Assembly: GCA_963739305.1 (NCBI GenBank)
Contig: CAVTZU010000011.1
Coordinates: forward strand, 1 to 64,000
DNA length: 64,000 bases
Direction of reading: 5' to 3'
From: Candidatus Bathyarchaeota archaeon
GTDB taxonomy: Archaea; Thermoproteota; Bathyarchaeia; Bathyarchaeales; Bathycorpusculaceae
Under the pieces are notes generated by a model. The model searched no databases and had not been told where the DNA came from. It worked only from the letters and a program-made list of their open reading frames with translations. Made by a program: the position numbers and the translations under genes. How positions within the stretch are numbered: the first letter of the stretch is position 1; every line of letters begins with the position of its first letter. Positions 51,145 to 58,266 of the stretch are shown here, piece by piece.

Positions 51145-52710
51145 ATGAGCGAGCATGAGAAACTTCAGAAAGCTGTCGAGCTTACTATAGCAGCAGGTTA
51201 CCAACTCAACAAAGACGCTTTTGAGTTCTTGAGCATGCTGCCAACGACGGAAGACCCCGCTTTGTTTATTACCAAAGCAATTCATCAGATCGAAAAACTT
51301 CAAGACAAGCCATTCTTTATCGATAAACAGTTTCTACAAGAACTTGTTTCACCATCAGGTCTCTCGAAGGAAGTGACAAACCAAGAATTAGAAGCTCACG
51401 GAACAGAAGAACGAGAGAGAACTTTAGGTCAGGCAATCACGGGGAAAACGACCTTCCATCCCTACGCAAAGGATATCGAGGCGAACATGAAGGTTCTTGA
51501 AGACCCAGGTTCACAGATAAGTTCAGGCGGTACGATCGAAGATTACGTAAGCTACTTCCAAGACCGATTTAGACAACTTGAGAGACTGTTGAGGCAAAGA
51601 ATGGATGTTAAGAGCGCAGCATCAGTCATGGACGCCATAAAGGCTCAAGCCAGCTCAAGACTCAAGGTCATAGGAATGCTCACTGAAAAAAGAGAATCGA
51701 AGCAGAAGACCTTTCTGACCATCGAAGATCTGAAGGCAAGCACCGTAGTATTGGTGCCGCAAAATGCGTCTCTGGACTTGCAGACAAAGACAAGAAACCT
51801 CTTGCTGGATCAAGTCATATGCATCAGCGTGCTCAAGTCGAGAAGTGGCCTGCTGGTTGCTGAAGATATAACACTGCCAGACATCGCGCAGAAATATCAG
51901 CACAAAGCGTCCGAGCCCATCTACGCAGTTCTCACCTCCGATATGCACGTCGGAAGCAAACTCTTCCTGAGAGATGCATTCCACCGGTTCGTTCTATGGC
52001 TTAATGGCAGATACGGCGACGACAGAACGCGTGACATAGCAAGCCACGTCAAATATGTCCTAATCGCAGGAGATATCGTCGACGGAATTGGCGTCTACCC
52101 AAACCAAGCCAAGGAGCTCGCAATAAAGGACGTCAACAAACAATACAGGCTCGCTGCCAGATACCTAGAGCACATCCCAGACTACATCGAAGTCATAATC
52201 ACACCTGGAAACCACGACGCACCCAGAAAGGCGCTACCCCAACCACCGATAGAAGACGCATACTTGGAGTCACTTGCAGAGACGAGGAAAGTCCACTCGC
52301 TAGGAGACCCCTGTCTGGTAAGCCTGCACGGAGTCGAGATCTTGATGTACCATGGGCGCAGCCTAGACGACGTGATCTCAACCGTGCCGGGAATGAGCCA
52401 CAGCCACCCCGAAAAAGCGATGCGACTGTTGCTTCAGGCACGGCATCTGGCCCCGCTCTACGGCGGAAAAACTCCGTTGTCACCAGAGAAGAGGGACTCT
52501 CTTGTCGTCGACCGGGTGCCGGACATCTTCCATGTAGGACATGTCCACGCCTTGGAATATGCAGCTTACAGGGGGGTTCTCAACGTCAACTCGGGATGTT
52601 GGCAGGAGCGGACAGGATATATGGTCAGGAACGGTTTCACACCCATGCCCGCAAAGGTCCCAGTAGTAAATCTTCAAACTCTAGAAACCACCGTGGTCCC
52701 GTTTGCTTGA
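51145..52710 (+). CDS. polB: DNA polymerase D small (exonuclease) subunit DP1
   Basis: SDMHVGS, AGDIVDGIGVYP, PGNHD, YHG, HLAP, GHVH. Confidence 0.95.
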   Translation: MSEHEKLQKAVELTIAAGYQLNKDAFEFLSMLPTTEDPALFITKAIHQIEKLQDKPFFIDKQFLQELVSPSGLSKEVTNQELEAHGTEERERTLGQAITGKTTFHPYAKDIEANMKVLEDPGSQISSGGTIEDYVSYFQDRFRQLERLLRQRMDVKSAASVMDAIKAQASSRLKVIGMLTEKRESKQKTFLTIEDLKASTVVLVPQNASLDLQTKTRNLLLDQVICISVLKSRSGLLVAEDITLPDIAQKYQHKASEPIYAVLTSDMHVGSKLFLRDAFHRFVLWLNGRYGDDRTRDIASHVKYVLIAGDIVDGIGVYPNQAKELAIKDVNKQYRLAARYLEHIPDYIEVIITPGNHDAPRKALPQPPIEDAYLESLAETRKVHSLGDPCLVSLHGVEILMYHGRSLDDVISTVPGMSHSHPEKAMRLLLQARHLAPLYGGKTPLSPEKRDSLVVDRVPDIFHVGHVHALEYAAYRGVLNVNSGCWQERTGYMVRNGFTPMPAKVPVVNLQTLETTVVPFA

Positions 52711-52756: not shown

Positions 52757-54007
52757 TCAATGTCTTCTGTCAGGTCTTTTTGAAAGACAACGGGGCTCGT
52801 AAGCCACAAGCCGTCCAAGCCTATTGTCCGCAGTGAAGACATCCCGAATGAGGCTACGTGCTATTTCTAGGCGTATCTTCTTGGTTCGCCCGTACCTCCC
52901 CATACTCACAACCTTCGCGTTCAAAAGGCCCATTGCGTCCAACTCGTTTATCAACGTACTCAAACGCCGTTGAGTCAATGGTGTAATACCTAACTCTCCG
53001 CTCAGTTCGTCATATACATCAAAAATCTCACCTGTAATCGCCCCTCGGGAACTATTTCTGTCAAGATGATAAATGCTCAGCGTCACAAGCTTAGAGTGCA
53101 AAGTGAGGTTGTTCAAGGCTTCCACAACACGATTGTGCTCAATGTGTTTCTCGGCTTCGCGAACATGCTCCTCTGTAACAACGTTCCCTCCCTTCCGCTC
53201 AGCCACTTCGCCAGCGACGCGCAGAAGATCTAAGGCTCGTCGTGCATCTCCGTGTTCTGCTGCCGCAAGAGCCGCACAAAGACCGAGTGCAGCATCAGAT
53301 AATGCATTCTCGAGGAAAGCAGCGCCCGCGCGTTCAGCAAGAATGTTCCGCAACTCGTCCGCGTCATAAGGCCTAAAAACCATCTCTTCCTCACTTAACG
53401 AACTGAGAACCCTTGGATCCAAGAACTCCTTTAGCCGTAAATCATTAGATATGCCTATGAGAGTCACCTTGCTTTTCTTAAGAACTTCGTTCATTCTAGT
53501 CAGCTCATATAGCAGACCGTCTCCACACGTCCTGATCAAAGCGTCAGCTTCATCTAAAACCACCATGAAAACTACACCAGAGACTTCTAGGCCAACCTTG
53601 AACCTGTCAAACACTTCTCCAACGGAGAGCCCAGTGAAAGGGACGTTTACGCCTAAAGCTTGGCACATGCTAGCAAAGGTGCGATATTCAGAGCCAGCTA
53701 AGCGGCAGTTCACGTAGCATAATTTGATGGGTGCACCGAACTCCTTGGCCTTGAATTCCAGGCGACCCAGCACGTACTTGACCACTGCTGTCTTTCCAGT
53801 ACCTGTTTTTCCGTAGATGAGAACATTGGAGCTTCTTGCCCCCTTGAGCAGTGGAGCTACTTTCTCACCAAGCTGCCTAATCTGATCTTCCCTATGAGGT
53901 AACCTACTTGGAAGATAGTCGTGACGCAACACCTCGCGATCCTTGAAAATCCTCACGTTGCTAACGAACTTGTCAAATACATCATCAAGTAAAGCAGGAT
54001 CGGTCAT
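52757..54007 (-). CDS. cdc6: Orc1/Cdc6 replication initiator
   Basis: YGKTGTGKT, LDEAD, HGDARRALDLLR, GRYGRT wHTH. Confidence 0.97.
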   Translation of the reverse strand: MTDPALLDDVFDKFVSNVRIFKDREVLRHDYLPSRLPHREDQIRQLGEKVAPLLKGARSSNVLIYGKTGTGKTAVVKYVLGRLEFKAKEFGAPIKLCYVNCRLAGSEYRTFASMCQALGVNVPFTGLSVGEVFDRFKVGLEVSGVVFMVVLDEADALIRTCGDGLLYELTRMNEVLKKSKVTLIGISNDLRLKEFLDPRVLSSLSEEEMVFRPYDADELRNILAERAGAAFLENALSDAALGLCAALAAAEHGDARRALDLLRVAGEVAERKGGNVVTEEHVREAEKHIEHNRVVEALNNLTLHSKLVTLSIYHLDRNSSRGAITGEIFDVYDELSGELGITPLTQRRLSTLINELDAMGLLNAKVVSMGRYGRTKKIRLEIARSLIRDVFTADNRLGRLVAYEPRCLSKRPDRRH

Positions 54008-54044
54008 AGCTACACATCTCAGAGTTCAGGAGTAACAGCACTTC

Positions 54045-54741
54045 TTCCTGTGGAGGACATAACACCTGTCGTACAGAAATCTAAATTTCGAACACGATAT
54101 TCCTAAAGGTAAGTGACTTCTCAATTGGAACCTGCAAAACAGAATGGACACACACCACCGCTTCGAGTGGAAATCTGTATCTATCTGAAGAATAATGTTG
54201 ATTCCTTCTGTTTAGAAGAAATATACTCCGTTTGGTAATAGTATCGAACGTATTATAATCATTATCCTTAAACATTTTAGAGGTATTCAAGAAAACTTCA
54301 ACACTTAAGCAAGAATTAACACAGTTCAACACACCTGTTCCACCGGAAACATAGGGGTGCCGCGCTCCGAACAATAACATACGAATATCCTTCTCTGGCC
54401 AGCTCTACAATATGCCTGAGTCTTCATTCTAGGCGTGAGTTCCTCCCATCAATGACACACCTCCGGTGACGTTTGCGCAGCTTTTCTTTTCACTAATCGC
54501 GAACGTCGTGTGAAATTGACTTCTTAATGTCTCTAGACGGGCTCCTTTTCTGATTCTATGCCGCCCTTTATGCCTCTCCACTGTGAATAGCTCACCCCTA
54601 CGCTTCTACTGGAGATTCCAATTAGAATGCAGCCTGCTCTTGTTTTTCCCTTTCAGAGGAGCTGTTACATATGTAATGGGGAAAGAACTGGAAAGAGGGT
54701 TCGCTGGGTCATTTGAAGCTCAGTTTGATGCTTCCCTGGAG
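54045..54741. promoter_or_regulatory. Replication origin (oriC) with ORB elements and an AT-rich unwinding region
   Basis: ORBs TTCCACCGGAAACATAGGGGT (+, 54338-54358), TTCCACTCGAAGCGGTGGTGT (-, 54152-54172), CTCCAGTAGAAGCGTAGGGGT (-, 54594-54614); mini-ORBs near 54045, 54651, 54685, 54732; AT-rich 54173-54337; upstream of cdc6. Confidence 0.85.
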
Positions 54742-54814
54742 GCACTATTCACCAAAACAGCTATAACCTTTGAACTGTGAAATTGTAAACAACAGATCTA
54801 GGTGCTGCCAACCG

Positions 54815-55246
54815 ATGCCTACAAGGAAAATGCGCGTCGAACTGTTTGACGGCGAAGGCAACCGCTATTCGATAAGCTTTCAGGGACAGATTACCAGAGA
54901 TAAGGCCCTACGTCTGCTTGACCTGGTTGAACTCTTGGGCGGAGTCCCAACCGGGGGGAGCAACCCAAGCACCGCGTCTCCTTCTCCAGCCTTCGAATTA
55001 ACAAAGTTCGAACGAATGAGGACTATGGTTGTTAGGCACTTCCCTTTGGTATGGTTTTCGTCGAGAGAGGTCCAATCGGTTTTTGAGCAGGAATATAAAG
55101 AACCGATTGCCCTAAGCACCGTTGCCACTTATCTGGCAAGAATGGCGGCCAAGGGGCTCGTCTTGAAGACAGGTCCCAGTAACAGCCTGAAGTACAAGGT
55201 TGCAACGAATGTTACCCGTGCGGCCCTAGAACAACATGTACCATAA
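54815..55246 (+). CDS. Two-domain protein with a C-terminal winged helix
   Basis: WFSSREVQSVFEQEY..IALSTVATYLARMAAKGLVLKTG..YKV. Confidence 0.8.
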   Translation: MPTRKMRVELFDGEGNRYSISFQGQITRDKALRLLDLVELLGGVPTGGSNPSTASPSPAFELTKFERMRTMVVRHFPLVWFSSREVQSVFEQEYKEPIALSTVATYLARMAAKGLVLKTGPSNSLKYKVATNVTRAALEQHVP

Positions 55247-55271
55247 ACTTTGCAATCAAAGCTTTAGAATG

Positions 55272-55994
55272 TCAGGTTGTTTGACTTTCCGTTTTCCTTA
55301 GGAACTTTTCCATTTCTTTCTTGACGCTGTACTTGAATGGGATCTTGCTGGTGTCTCTTTCCAAGTAGCCCTCTTCGTATAATTTCTTCATCAGACGCGC
55401 TGTGTGTTCTCTGCTTAGCTTCACGTGTTCTTTGATCTCAGGTGCCGTTTTTGGCCCCTCAGAGGCAAGCAACTCTAAGGCAGACAGCTCGGTTTCTGTA
55501 AGTTGCGCTATTGCCTTGTCCTTTCTCATGGGGATGACAGCTTCGAAACTTGCTTCGGGGACAGCGGGCAACTGGGTCGCTTTCTGCTCGAGTTCGGACA
55601 GTTTGACCTTGAGGGCGTCCTGTGACGTGGCGAGGTCACGCAAATTCTTCTCCGTAATATCCAAGCGAGAAACAGCGGATGTTCTGCCGTCATTTTCTGC
55701 CTGAACTTTAGCCTCTAGGTCGCCCATGCGTTTCTCGACACCTTTTGCAATGTCAAGAGTGCTTCCTGCCTTTGAGGCGATAGTCTCCACCTTGTACGCT
55801 ACGATTTCAAGCTTGTCGCCTTCGCGTTTGAATTGCCTGTTGAAGCTCAAGACGATGTCCTCGACGGCCATTTTGGCCTTCTCAAACTCCTTCTGAGCAC
55901 GGCGGAGATATCTGTAATACTCGATGGCTGCGAAAACCGTTACTGCTGCTAAGCAAGTCACGAGGGCCAGGATCAATTCATCCAAGTGTATCAC
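55272..55994 (-). CDS. Membrane-anchored coiled-coil winged-helix DNA-binding protein
   Basis: N-terminal TM (LILALVTCLAAVTVFAAI); ~110-aa heptad region; C-terminal wHTH LTETELSALELL..TAPEIKEHVKLSREHTARLMKKLYEEGYLER. Confidence 0.85.
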   Translation of the reverse strand: MIHLDELILALVTCLAAVTVFAAIEYYRYLRRAQKEFEKAKMAVEDIVLSFNRQFKREGDKLEIVAYKVETIASKAGSTLDIAKGVEKRMGDLEAKVQAENDGRTSAVSRLDITEKNLRDLATSQDALKVKLSELEQKATQLPAVPEASFEAVIPMRKDKAIAQLTETELSALELLASEGPKTAPEIKEHVKLSREHTARLMKKLYEEGYLERDTSKIPFKYSVKKEMEKFLRKTESQTT

Positions 55995-56283
55995 CTGTGA
56001 TACATACGTGATTAGTTGTGACCTTTGTCACGTTGCATCACAGATCACATCTTGACGGTTGGGAATATAAAATTTACGGTAGAGTCCATGAAATCTGAGA
56101 ACCATGACGTCACGCGTCACAGTCTGACGGCAAATTCGATTGTCTGACCTCGCTTATGGGTATTCAGAGATAAGGCTATTTGCTGCCATTGTTTTCAATT
56201 ATAGGCATATTTGCTGGCTTCTTGCGCGTGGTTTGTGAGGTACCTGAGAAAATATGATTTTGTGGTGTGATTTGTGATGTCAC
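55990..56283. repeat. GTGAY/RTCAC half-site array 1 (12 copies)
   Basis: Includes the dyad GTGAT-N5-GTGAC-N4-GTCAC-N5-ATCAC (56008-56041), ATGACGTCAC (56104) and GTGATGTCAC (56274). Confidence 0.85.
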
Positions 56284-56768
56284 AATTGGCTTTCAGATGG
56301 ACTGGATAGCTGTTTTAGACTTGTTTCAAGCTCCTCTCTGAGCAATTCAATGACCTTGACGCGCTCGCTTTGTTCTGTGGGTGCGTTGGGTATGTTCCTA
56401 TAGGCCTCTAAGTATGTCTTCAGTTTGTTGGCGATTTCCAGGTAGGGGTCGAGAGTTGTGCTCTCGAAGACTCCTAAGTACCCCAGAAGTATGACGGTAT
56501 AAATGGATTTTATGACATTGTCCTTTGCCTGTTTTAATGTCCTGTTAAAGGATCCGCGGCTTATTTTGGCCTTTGTTAGCCTTAAGCTGGCTTTCTCGTC
56601 GTATTTCAACGATTTGCCAGCCAATTGCTCGGATAATATGTCAATGAGGAGCGTCTCGAGCTGTGTTTTCGTTAAATGGCTGCTTGAGGCGATGATTTTG
56701 GCAACGGGGTCGTTAATGGAGCTTGTCAGCCAAGATTGAACACTTTCTTTAAGCCTCAAGTCGCTCAC
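56280..56768 (-). CDS. Putative HTH DNA-binding protein (sigma4/Bat-HTH-like)
   Basis: LTKTQLETLL....ISRGSFNRTLKQAKDNV pattern. Confidence 0.7.
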   Translation of the reverse strand: MSDLRLKESVQSWLTSSINDPVAKIIASSSHLTKTQLETLLIDILSEQLAGKSLKYDEKASLRLTKAKISRGSFNRTLKQAKDNVIKSIYTVILLGYLGVFESTTLDPYLEIANKLKTYLEAYRNIPNAPTEQSERVKVIELLREELETSLKQLSSPSESQL

Positions 56769-56968
56769 CTGTGGGGACTATGCAAATGGATACGGTTCTG
56801 TATACGGGCTCGGCTTTTAAGGCCTTCGGATTCTTAATGCCAGGGATTGGTGCCGGCTGGAGAGGGGGGTATTGGGCTCTTTGTGCGGTGAATGGCTGTC
56901 AGGACCGACGATCGGGCGTAAGAGGCGCGGAGAGTGGTGGAAATTGGCGAATAGGGAAGGAATGGGTC

Positions 56969-57371
56969 GTGATGACGCTTGACCTAGAATTCAGAGTCAC
57001 ATCACTTCAGTTGTTAATGAAAGAGAGTGAGTCAATTTTTGGGTAAAGATGAAGTGTGGAGAAGACTGGGCAGGACGTGGTGCAAACCATGTTATGAAAC
57101 GAGGTGATTAGCGTGTCTTTGGCGTGCGCATCGGAAAGGATCATGTGTTGACGACGTTACAGGTCGCATCATGAATCAATGTTGATGCGTGAAGTGGGAG
57201 AATCTGTGTGGTGAACGGATTTCGTGATACGACTGAAGCGTCGTTTGATTCTTTGCGTTGCATCGTGACGTCACTTGTCACAAGTAAGATCACGTGTGAC
57301 GCTTTCGCGTTGACGAATTCTTCATGTTGGTGTGATGTGATTGTGATTCGACGCCCGATCACAAACGTCAA
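56969..57371. repeat. GTGAY/RTCAC half-site array 2 (14 copies)
   Basis: GTCACATCAC 56996; perfect palindrome GTGACGTCAC 57265; GTGATGTGATTGTGAT 57332. Confidence 0.85.
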
Positions 57372-57432
57372 CTTTGATTGAAGTTGTTACTATCGCTGCA
57401 GAAAGACTGTTCAAAGGCTGAGATTCCGGGTT

Positions 57433-58266
57433 CTACAGTTCTTCGGCCAACCTTCTAAGTTTGTCAAACAACTCCGGTCTCAAGTCCTTAAGTGTTGGGA
57501 CGAAGGCTTCGACGGATCTTATGTCCGTGTAATCAACCTCGTGAACTACGAAGTCCTCTTCATCATACCTAGCCTGGACGAGTGGTCTTCCGTTGGGACC
57601 CAGTAGTCTGCTTCCGCCCCAAAACTGCAAGCCATCCTGAACGCCGACGAGGTTGACAAAAGCCAAAAACGCGGTGTTCTCCATGGCTCTTGCAGCTGTA
57701 AGTACTTCAAAGAAACCCCGACGGATTGTAGGCGAAGCTGAGATACAGATAATGAACTGAGCGCCTTCCAGCCTCTCGCATCTTGTCACCTCGGGAAAAT
57801 AGATGTCGTAGCATATCATGAGGCCTATCCTTCCAAGGTCGGTGGAGAATACTGCAGGCTGGTACCCAGGGCGGAAGTATCTCTTCTCTTCGAAAACGCT
57901 GTGTGTTGGTAGATACATCTTACGGTACTTTCCAACAAGGCCCTTTGGGCTTACCAGGACTGATGTATTGTGGAGCGTTGCTTGAGTGTTCTTACTAAGT
58001 TCAGGCATGCCAAAAACCACGTGAAGTCCTGTTTTCCTCGCGATTTTCTCCACGCGTTCCGTTGATTTTCCAGGGATTTCTTCCGCGAGTTCGAAGATTT
58101 GATCTCTGACCACGTAGCCAGTCAGAGAGAGTTCGGGAAGAATCAGCAGTTTAGCTCCTTGTTTCTGGGCCCTGGCCGCGGCCTTCTCGAACTTTCTCAA
58201 ATTTGCCTCTTTGTCACAAGGTTTGCTTTCAATCTGGGCTAGAGCGACGCCGAACTTGTCTTTCAA
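57433..58266 (-). CDS. Carbon-nitrogen hydrolase (nitrilase superfamily)
   Basis: E-K-C triad motifs LPELSLTGY, YRKMYLP, ICYD. Confidence 0.92.
   Translation of the reverse strand: MKDKFGVALAQIESKPCDKEANLRKFEKAAARAQKQGAKLLILPELSLTGYVVRDQIFELAEEIPGKSTERVEKIARKTGLHVVFGMPELSKNTQATLHNTSVLVSPKGLVGKYRKMYLPTHSVFEEKRYFRPGYQPAVFSTDLGRIGLMICYDIYFPEVTRCERLEGAQFIICISASPTIRRGFFEVLTAARAMENTAFLAFVNLVGVQDGLQFWGGSRLLGPNGRPLVQARYDEEDFVVHEVDYTDIRSVEAFVPTLKDLRPELFDKLRRLAEEL

Follow-up and report, generated by a model that had tools for sequence, protein, structure and literature searches.

What does a membrane protein that ends in a DNA-binding domain do beside the replication origin of an archaeal chromosome: does it regulate, does it tether, or does it do both? 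The question is raised by a locus in a stretch of 64,000 nucleotides from Candidatus Bathyarchaeota archaeon (GenBank assembly GCA_963739305.1, contig CAVTZU010000011.1, positions 1 to 64,000), here called the window. The gene in question lies at 55272..55985 on the reverse strand and encodes a protein with an N-terminal transmembrane (TM) helix, a helical stalk and a C-terminal winged helix-turn-helix (wHTH) domain; it is referred to below as the TM-stalk-wHTH gene. The domain anatomy is conserved, the gene keeps its place beside the origin (oriC), and arrays of the half-site GTGAY, exclusive to this locus, co-occur with the gene across genomes. The reading favoured here, with a probability of about 0.5, is that of a sensor-less, membrane-anchored, site-specific DNA binder, which would autoregulate its own gene and physically couple origin-proximal DNA to the membrane; DNA binding and membrane insertion are both predicted. 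That anchoring of the origin is its dedicated role is a tentative proposal.

The longest open reading frame (ORF), 55272-55994 on the reverse strand, is open from a GTG at 55994 and would give 240 amino acids (aa). Since nearly all relatives, as well as this genome's own protein record, have 237 aa, translation probably begins at the TTG at 55985, three codons inside the GTG frame. Residue numbers throughout follow the 240-aa numbering from the GTG. The protein is divided as follows, AF2 standing for AlphaFold2.

55272..55985, reverse strand: gene of the TM-stalk-wHTH protein, 237 aa from TTG 55985
55923..55979, reverse strand: N-terminal TM helix, aa 6-24, ELILALVTCLAAVTVFAAI, predicted from hydropathy, flanking charges and its place in a continuous AF2 helix
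55575..55922, reverse strand: heptad-rich helical stalk, aa 25-140, from the heptad score, a PDB profile search and AF2
55521..55571, reverse strand: Pro-rich flexible hinge, aa 142-158, disordered in AF2 (pLDDT about 40), also from the alignment
55278..55517, reverse strand: wHTH domain, aa 160-239, from Pfam, AF2 and Foldseek
55395..55412, reverse strand: first residues of the recognition helix (aa 195-200), REHTAR in every one of the 36 aligned members

The most hydrophobic 19-residue segment is aa 6-24, with a Kyte-Doolittle mean of 2.43, and the corresponding window is N-terminal in all 36 aligned family members, where its mean is at least 1.97. It is preceded by an acidic tail of 2-5 residues. 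Among the 36 members 0-5 residues (16 in one row) stand before the top window and are net positive in none, while the first 15 residues past the helix carry 3-6 Lys or Arg. A hydropathy scan of the family alignment found no second hydrophobic segment (maximum 1.31). By the positive-inside rule, these flanking charges predict an N-out/C-in anchor, and the negative n-region together with the DNA-binding C-terminus argues against a cleaved Sec signal peptide.

The stalk opens with a conserved juxtamembrane motif, EYYR.LR.AQ.EYEKAK, and the rest of it differs in sequence and length by lineage. The heptad score, a crude measure of our own, is 0.657 over aa 25-160 against 0.426 +/- 0.051 in 200 shuffles, none of which scores as high, and its z-score is 2.4-7.0 in all 36 members. 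A search of the family profile against the PDB matches only coiled-coil chains over aa 25-145. The AF2 monomer, computed with an alignment as input (mean pLDDT 86.6, pTM 0.36), shows a single unbroken helix over aa 4-140 with pLDDT of 81-97 per ten-residue block. The protein probably oligomerises through paired stalks. With a helix rise of about 0.15 nm per residue, the 116-residue stalk would span about 17 nm if straight and paired. The hinge that follows is poorly kept in sequence except for one Pro and an AVIP.KR motif.

The head is a wHTH domain of the MarR/TrmB type. Pfam places both MarR (PF01047, 31.7 bits against a cut-off of 24.6) and TrmB (PF01978, 30.3 bits against 25.6) at aa 165-224, and the Pfam scan of aa 1-160 gives no match. 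In the AF2 model the domain is made of helices 167-179 and 184-191, the recognition helix 195-208, wing strands 211-214 and 221-224, and a final helix 226-239; Foldseek with this head finds MarR-family structures at 1.8e-4 to 9e-4 and weaker. Among 120 representative matches of 195-320 aa, the recognition helix starts with REHTAR in 87 and REHTSR in 18, and the N-terminal hydrophobic segment is kept in 105, the other 15 looking N-terminally truncated. The first-pass annotation had described an N-terminal TM helix, no ectodomain, a long helical stalk and a terminal wHTH; hydropathy, heptad score, Pfam and AF2 agree with it. Its remark that an extracellular sensor is absent is borne out by the 2-5 residues before the TM helix and by Pfam and AF2, which reveal no further domain, and the basic stretch that it pointed to after the helix, YRYLRR, is aa 27-32.

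The locus around the gene is recognizable as an origin of replication. The order in the window is PolD small subunit, Orc1/Cdc6, a non-coding spacer, orf158, the TM-stalk-wHTH gene, orf162, a second non-coding stretch, a nitrilase-like gene and an NAD-synthase-like (NadE-like) gene, the last two named by eye only.

51145-52710, forward strand: PolD small subunit
52757..54007, reverse strand: Orc1/Cdc6 initiator gene, from Pfam
54339..54357, forward strand: origin recognition box (ORB)-like element 1 of oriC, TCCACCGGAAACATAGGGG, canonical ORB pattern
54595..54613, reverse strand: ORB-like element 2 of oriC, TCCAGTAGAAGCGTAGGGG, canonical ORB pattern, inverted to element 1
54770..55246, forward strand: orf158, probable start 54815, between oriC and the TM-stalk-wHTH gene, convergent with the latter and 25 bp away
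56280..56768, reverse strand: orf162, a conserved, all-alpha, uncharacterised protein of 159-162 aa, flanked by both arrays

The two ORB-like elements are the only canonical matches in the window, against 0.07 expected, to a pattern built on the ORB consensus. In 35 related Cdc6 loci all 22 strict ORB matches fall in the spacer between Cdc6 and orf158 and none elsewhere, and the cumulative GC skew has its minimum at 54-56 kb. The nearer ORB lies 659 bp from the 3' end of the TM-stalk-wHTH gene. The first-pass annotation had placed the protein 0.5 kb from the ORBs, which is roughly right for this distance. The GTGAY arrays, the probable target of the protein, are not ORBs: the canonical ORBs lie in the Cdc6-orf158 spacer and the arrays are a separate element.

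The association with the origin is conserved. Twenty 20-kb loci were compared, each from a different genome, with several families represented: within 10 kb of the gene, PolD-small is found in 20 of 20, orf162 in 19, Cdc6 in 16 and orf158 in 15, and the same gene order recurs in Nitrososphaeria loci. A phyletic profile, which the first-pass annotation had proposed and which was run here, reveals a single-copy core gene: it is single-copy in the window's own genome, a single-protein query finds it in 218 of 301 sampled Bathyarchaeia genomes (121 of the 151 high-quality ones), and ammonia-oxidising Nitrososphaeria have it as well. At the level of the phylum, a profile search at E 1e-8 finds it in 214 of 401 genomes; in family f35 all 56 have it.

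The GTGAY sites form two arrays, which flank orf162.

55990..56048, no strand: proximal part of array A, seven GTGAY/RTCAC half-sites, from the predicted transcription start to the start codon
56064..56071, reverse strand: TATA-like box TTTATATT of the gene's putative promoter, with equivalent CTTAAAT/CCTTAAA boxes in relatives
56104..56120, reverse strand: distal composite of array A, GTGACGCGTGACGTCAT, upstream of the TATA-like box
56267..56283, forward strand: composite GTGATTTGTGATGTCAC, overlapping the orf162 stop codon
57224..57362, no strand: array B, with its core composite at 57265-57281, beside the stop of the nitrilase gene

Over the whole window GTGAY is not raised (205 found against 241 expected), and only its clustering is unusual. 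Array B with 8 sites and array A with 7 sites per 80 bp are the densest clusters in the 2.3 Mb genome, where four places reach 5 sites per 80 bp; the two besides the arrays hold exactly 5, which is about chance level by our own Poisson estimate. The window has four matches to GTGAYNNGTGAY, where 0.39 are expected, and all of them fall within 56037-57281. T-GTGAY-n-T is the consensus of the half-site, which is arranged by preference as the palindrome GTGAYRTCAC or as direct repeats at a distance of 7 or 11 bp; in family 1 the proximal part of array A has the consensus CTGTGATGTGTGATGCAAC ... ATCAC ... ATCACRG. This variety of spacing and orientation would fit heads on flexible hinges, such as the one in the AF2 model. 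The arrays, which lie at distances of 1.4 and 2.6-2.7 kb from the oriC ORBs, hold their position throughout Bathyarchaeia and are also found upstream of the Nitrososphaeria orthologues.

Several comparisons connect the arrays with this protein. Where the gene is missing, orf158 and orf162 are still kept as immediate neighbours. Counted within 1.2 kb of orf162, the densest 100 bp hold 5-10 GTGAY sites in all 20 loci that have the gene, against 0-2 in 12 of 13 loci that lack it. The 17-nt composite GTGAYNNGTGAYGTCAY is present in 87 of 301 genomes (a reversed control pattern has 2 matches), and 86 of these 87 carry the gene. It is found in none of the 44 genomes of nine gene-less families (f7, f8, f9, f15, f17, f18, f20, f21, f22). 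Its matches are confined to the locus, 141 of 143 lying no more than 3 kb from the gene or orf162; of the two others, one is elsewhere in genome G198 and one is in G251. Neither the recognition helix nor the motif varies, and the two span the same taxonomic range. Taken together, the sequence comparisons suggest that the wHTH head most likely binds GTGAY half-sites.

Array A overlaps the gene's own promoter, as far as the TATA-like box identifies it, with GTGAY sites on both sides of that box. In archaeal promoters a repressor acts between the transcription start and the start codon, and array A suits a repressor site because its proximal part spans exactly this interval as expected for the gene. 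The protein would thus be at least also a local (auto)regulator.

A purely promoter role is argued against by arrays that lie inside coding sequences; some of the sites lie within genes or at a distance of over 450 bp from the nearest promoter. Array B lies about 460-600 bp upstream of the orf162 start and 460-700 bp upstream of that gene's proximal TATA-like box and operator-like element. In five relatives an aminotransferase gene lies between orf162 and the nitrilase gene, and in all five array B lies inside its coding sequence, as 4-5 GTGAY sites in the 84 nt before the NPTG motif; the same 84-nt stretch has no site in any of the four unlinked paralogues in the window's genome. Judged from these sequences, the stretch looks like a binding-site array under double constraint. 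The five loci are L034, L035, L036, L040 and L044, and the array residues read ...V[TM]S[LP]IT.KSRV[IM]... A cluster ATCAC-N15-ATCACGTGAT-N6-ATCAC is also seen in the three Nitrosopumilaceae-like loci L074-L076, where it lies within the orthologue's own coding sequence (aa LITNKAMTSRDIQIT) with the I-T and S-R-[DV]-I codons exploited just as in the aminotransferase.

These features suggest the following mechanism. The protein would be inserted N-out/C-in, with the stalk, the hinge and the MarR/TrmB-type head with its REHTAR helix in the cytoplasm. The flexibly hinged heads would bind GTGAY half-sites, in direct and inverted arrangement, in the two arrays flanking orf162, and binding at array A, in the promoter and leader of the gene, would autoregulate it. 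The array-bound protein, being integral to the membrane, would hold origin-proximal DNA at the cytoplasmic membrane; if membrane insertion and array binding both hold, origin-proximal DNA is necessarily at the membrane. The arrangement would be parS/ParB-like or RicO-like, with the membrane anchor built in, and might contribute to origin positioning, segregation or replication control. The first-pass annotation had preferred a DNA-membrane tether to a ToxR-like sensor-regulator. The lack of an outside sensor, the single-copy synteny with oriC in two classes, the locus-confined motif and the sites away from promoters are in line with the tether, but array A sits on the gene's own promoter and the protein is thus predicted to be a local (auto)regulator as well.

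The protein could also be an ordinary transmembrane transcription regulator of its own gene and perhaps of orf162, with a signal passed through the membrane helix or a partner membrane protein and the contact between DNA and membrane a mere by-product. We consider this main rival possible, if doubtful. Proteins combining a DNA-binding domain with a TM segment are common in archaea, at about 4 per genome, and enriched in Thermoproteota, according to the accessible part of PMC10269533. Array A has sites on both sides of the TATA-like box and takes up the leader, where an archaeal repressor classically sits, so that plain autoregulation explains this array and weighs against the anchor; the predicted target set is the local locus only, and the gene is dispensable in several lineages. 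Against it, the protein lacks an ectodomain or a ligand-binding domain, and strict single-copy conservation with origin synteny in two classes would be unusual for an environmental regulator. Array B and the intragenic arrays, far from promoters or in coding sequences and yet conserved, are difficult to reconcile with such a regulator, and orf162 has a proximal promoter of its own with a different, genome-unique element. In another view the protein is a latent, membrane-stored transcription factor that is freed by regulated proteolysis in the hinge or juxtamembrane region, its soluble head then acting on the arrays, much as membrane-tethered factors do elsewhere. The disordered hinge (aa 142-158) would be accessible to a protease, the juxtamembrane motif is conserved, and soluble coiled-coil-wHTH homologues exist in Thermoprotei-like genomes (L081-L083). 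The hinge is poorly conserved apart from one Pro and AVIP.KR, though, nothing points to a signal, and no protease gene is a conserved neighbour in the 20 loci, a weak test in which the comparison covered only the seven window genes; we regard release by proteolysis as very unlikely.

The arrays could instead be bound by orf162, orf158, Orc1/Cdc6 or another factor, or act as RNA structure, the head having another target and the co-occurrence reflecting shared descent. Only 2-3 independent changes on the Cdc6 tree stand behind the co-occurrence, and two genomes have sites where the gene is not detected: G081, with a 5-site cluster near orf162 and no gene by the genome-wide profile (86% complete, with a masked stretch in the locus), and G251, with a composite and no gene match (86% complete). 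Both orf162 and orf158 also look like DNA binders; the N-terminal domain of orf162 is weakly similar to DnaA domain IV (Z 6.1-6.9), and there is a Sigma70_r4 lead (0.78). The gene leader in the window folds well as RNA (-26.7 kcal/mol, z -4.8). These points count against binding by the head, but in 12 of 13 gene-less loci orf162, orf158 and Cdc6 are still there while the arrays are not, and the recognition helix, like the motif, stays unchanged over the same taxa. The arrays occur on either strand and in coding as well as non-coding DNA, which likewise speaks against this reading. A conserved leader hairpin was rejected: the consensus fold of 21 leaders is weak (-6.95 kcal/mol, covariation term -0.73), the paired columns being nearly invariant rather than covarying, and Rfam gives no match at E up to 1 over 53900-57500. 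Another binder or an RNA element is, on balance, unlikely.

Further observations weigh against the favoured reading of a membrane-anchored origin binder. The profile search has no match in many families of the phylum (for example f36 0/16, f44 0/23, f45 0/12, f50 0/15) and the gene was lost at least twice in Bathyarchaeia, so its function is dispensable in some lineages. The Thermoprotei-like homologues L081-L083 have no TM segment. The strict composite is rare in some families that bear the gene (1/71 in f19, 0/10 in f26), although three of four inspected f19 loci (L048-L050) have GTGAY clusters of 7-8 sites per 100 bp in another syntax, and the gene-bearing loci L084 and L085 reach just 3-4 sites per 100 bp. 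Binding of GTGAY by the head is a prediction, and the AF2 model, a monomer with pTM 0.36, does not fix the oligomeric state or the geometry of the stalk. As a separate candidate, a variant DNA motif paired with a T-to-I change in the L084 recognition helix was sought by a k-mer cluster scan, which gave nothing convincing.

In its broadest form the proposal would make the protein the first origin-membrane anchor of archaea: a centromere binder that carries its own membrane anchor in one polypeptide and is found from Bathyarchaeia to ammonia-oxidising Nitrososphaeria. Through its locus-exclusive GTGAY arrays, some of them inside coding sequences, it would position or segregate the origin at the membrane, possibly with orf158 and orf162. 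We put it forward as speculative.

Transmembrane transcription regulators (TTRs) are described, in the accessible part of Demey et al. 2023 (PMC10269533), as one-component sensors of information from outside the cell, of which single-pass forms are the commonest and which, in archaea, are enriched in Thermoproteota. The protein has the DNA-binding domain and at least one TM segment in one polypeptide by which that part of the source defines TTRs (PMC10269533), and of the groups compared it fits only this bare definition. It differs from them in lacking an ectodomain or ligand domain for extracellular sensing, and in being a single-copy core gene beside oriC with a motif confined to its own locus. 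Some proteins of this family may be listed in the supplements of PMC10269533.

By mechanism, the nearest analogues would be the bacterial proteins RicO and Noc. RicO of Staphylococcus aureus, according to the available part of its description, bridges a specific origin-proximal motif and the membrane and is proposed to anchor the origin at the cell periphery (bioRxiv 10.64898/2026.03.06.710092). The likeness is by mechanism only: a specific motif is clustered near the origin here too, and its binding by this protein is predicted. RicO, in contrast, is bacterial, has an N-terminal DNA-binding domain and a C-terminal amphipathic helix, and its function has been shown experimentally (same source, available part). 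The protein described here has an integral N-terminal TM helix and a stalk, the two being compared by description and not by sequence. Noc has a ParB-like fold and binds the membrane peripherally. Its sites in Bacillus subtilis are scattered round the chromosome and it acts in nucleoid occlusion, as stated in the accessible text of PMC4331003. Here, unlike in Noc, the sites form two arrays at one locus.

By architecture, the nearest case is p16.7 of phage phi29, which has an N-terminal TM segment, a coiled coil and a C-terminal DNA-binding domain, an order that would match the one found here. It binds DNA and terminal protein without a specific array, through a different DNA-binding fold. Integral to the membrane, p16.7 tethers replicating DNA there and organises replication in association with the membrane (PMC4974454 and PMC11476376, parts available). 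The TM-stalk-wHTH protein has no tblastn match in the plasmid and phage collections searched.

Among archaeal proteins, AspA of the Sulfolobus plasmid pNOB8 is a winged-helix centromere binder, on whose structures the head superposes (5k5q, E 8.9e-4, TMt 0.65; 4rs8, E 2.3e-3, TMt 0.70), a match no better than that of many MarR-family regulators in the same Foldseek list. AspA itself is a small soluble protein that acts together with other partition proteins. None of the neighbours examined here, PolD-small, Cdc6, orf158 and orf162 and the nitrilase-like and NadE-like genes named by eye, matches an NTPase family; the genome was not searched for ParA/SegA-like genes. The accessible part of a comparative paper on SegAB (PMC12139799) does not mention these lineages.

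The head itself does not make the protein a member of the established regulator families. MarR proteins proper are soluble, of about 140-150 aa, with N- and C-terminal helices round the wHTH as dimer interface, whereas here only the HTH core matches (profile positions 1-52 of 59) and the TM helix, the 116-residue stalk and the hinge precede the head. In TrmB proteins the wHTH comes first, then a coiled coil and, in most cases, a sugar-binding domain at the C-terminus; the order here is reversed, with the stalk first and the wHTH last, and there is no C-terminal domain. ToxR, CadC and TcpP share with this protein a winged helix tethered by one TM helix and acting on DNA from the membrane. They have, however, an N-terminal cytoplasmic OmpR-type wHTH, a TM helix and a C-terminal periplasmic sensor, and act on dispersed virulence or stress genes; the domain order here is opposite, the head is of MarR/TrmB type and there is no periplasmic domain. 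A link to the coiled-coil winged-helix proteins of the ESCRT/Cdv system was considered and dropped, the families described in the accessible part of PMC11188069 being other ones.

TTRs are known as a class, but this origin-linked family is, as far as found, undescribed: the literature search, which left subscription papers and the supplements of PMC10269533 outside, found no description of it. Reviews, in the parts available, call chromosome positioning and segregation in archaea beyond the Sulfolobales elusive and name no link between origin and membrane for Thaumarchaeota or Bathyarchaeia (PMC5120986, PMC7617429). The locus offers a concrete candidate, with one small protein, a grammar of 5-bp half-sites and two arrays by a recognizable oriC, and it is testable through orthologues in cultivable ammonia oxidisers. 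If the protein is an anchor, the membrane-attached origin of the replicon model would be realised in archaea without a described segregation machinery; if it is only an autoregulator, it still represents a widespread sensor-less class of membrane-anchored regulators fixed at an archaeal origin. The locus also presents arrays of predicted protein-binding sites that are kept inside unrelated coding sequences, and it draws attention to two more conserved origin-neighbour proteins, orf158 and orf162.

The family extends beyond Bathyarchaeia with changes in its middle part. Exact-sequence look-ups return orthologues named "winged helix DNA-binding protein" from Nitrosopumilus adriaticus and Ca. Nitrosocaldus (source names), and the homologue clusters in the protein Atlas, which has no model of them, come from Bathyarchaeota and Nitrososphaerota only. 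The stalk is the variable part, being about 40 residues shorter in f19 and carrying insertions in other families, and in the Nitrososphaeria orthologues the coiled coil is short and leads into a low-complexity linker. The first-pass suggestion that the stalk holds the wHTH off the membrane thus fits the helix of about 116 residues in Bathyarchaeia but not Nitrososphaeria; the distance of the head from the membrane is not a conserved feature, because the long coiled coil is specific to Bathyarchaeia. A scan of NCBIfam gives only sub-threshold wHTH families and none at the cut-off, the Lrs14 family NF040939 reaching 25.4 bits against a cut-off of 90. The homologues L081-L083, one of which comes from a Thermoprotei metagenome-assembled genome by source name, have a coiled coil and a head of the same type (REH.AR) and do not lie beside Cdc6. 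Five ATCAC sites are found directly past the 3' end of L081.

The neighbour orf162 is more widely kept than the TM-stalk-wHTH gene (243 of 301 genomes of the class). It belongs to no Pfam family and all its homologues are named "hypothetical". Its AF2 model has eight helices (pLDDT 83.8, pTM 0.72), and DnaA domain IV chains are the only structural matches over its N-terminal 98 residues (1j1v, Z 6.9; 3pvp, Z 6.4; 8btg, Z 6.1); these model-based scores are middling and may reflect only a common helical arrangement. The Sigma70_r4 lead from the Atlas is weak, and Foldseek finds nothing at E up to 0.001. The protein is a possible HTH protein fixed beside archaeal origins. Profile searches of the PDB with orf162 and orf158 gave nothing significant.

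The orf162 gene has its own proximal TATA-like box and, at 56788-56805, a GTATAC-N6-GTATCC element. This element, GTATACAGAACCGTATCC on the reverse strand, lies about 20-40 nt upstream of the orf162 start, after the CCTTAAAAG box. Nothing else in the 2.3 Mb genome matches GTATAC-N5-7-GTATYC, and all nine loci compared (the window and eight relatives) keep the element, which probably serves a different factor as its operator. A non-coding stretch of about 450 bp (56770-57224) separates orf162 from array B; in it the GC skew is positive (0.148 in the 56-58 kb bin) and neither an Rfam match nor a convincing ORF was found. The idea that 56770-57432 is a remnant of the aminotransferase gene was discarded, tblastn of the window's contig giving no match.

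The other neighbour, orf158, stays beside Cdc6 even in lineages without the TM-stalk-wHTH gene. Its C-terminal part is winged-helix-like below threshold (Penicillinase_R, 18.3 bits against 22.6; PDB 2k4b at 0.058). Homology of the wHTH head to orf158 or orf162 was rejected, with hhalign probabilities of 2% and 1%.

A lone in-frame TAG or TAA stands within otherwise full-length matches to the TM-stalk-wHTH gene in G020:C6, G181:C58 and G238:C5, and to orf162 in several f1 and f5 genomes; the in-frame TAA of orf162 may simply be a stop read through at the end of the match. Genome G253 has three copies each of the gene and orf162 (contigs C51, C4 and C29), with the composite motif near each, and could be a mixed bin or contain several replicons.

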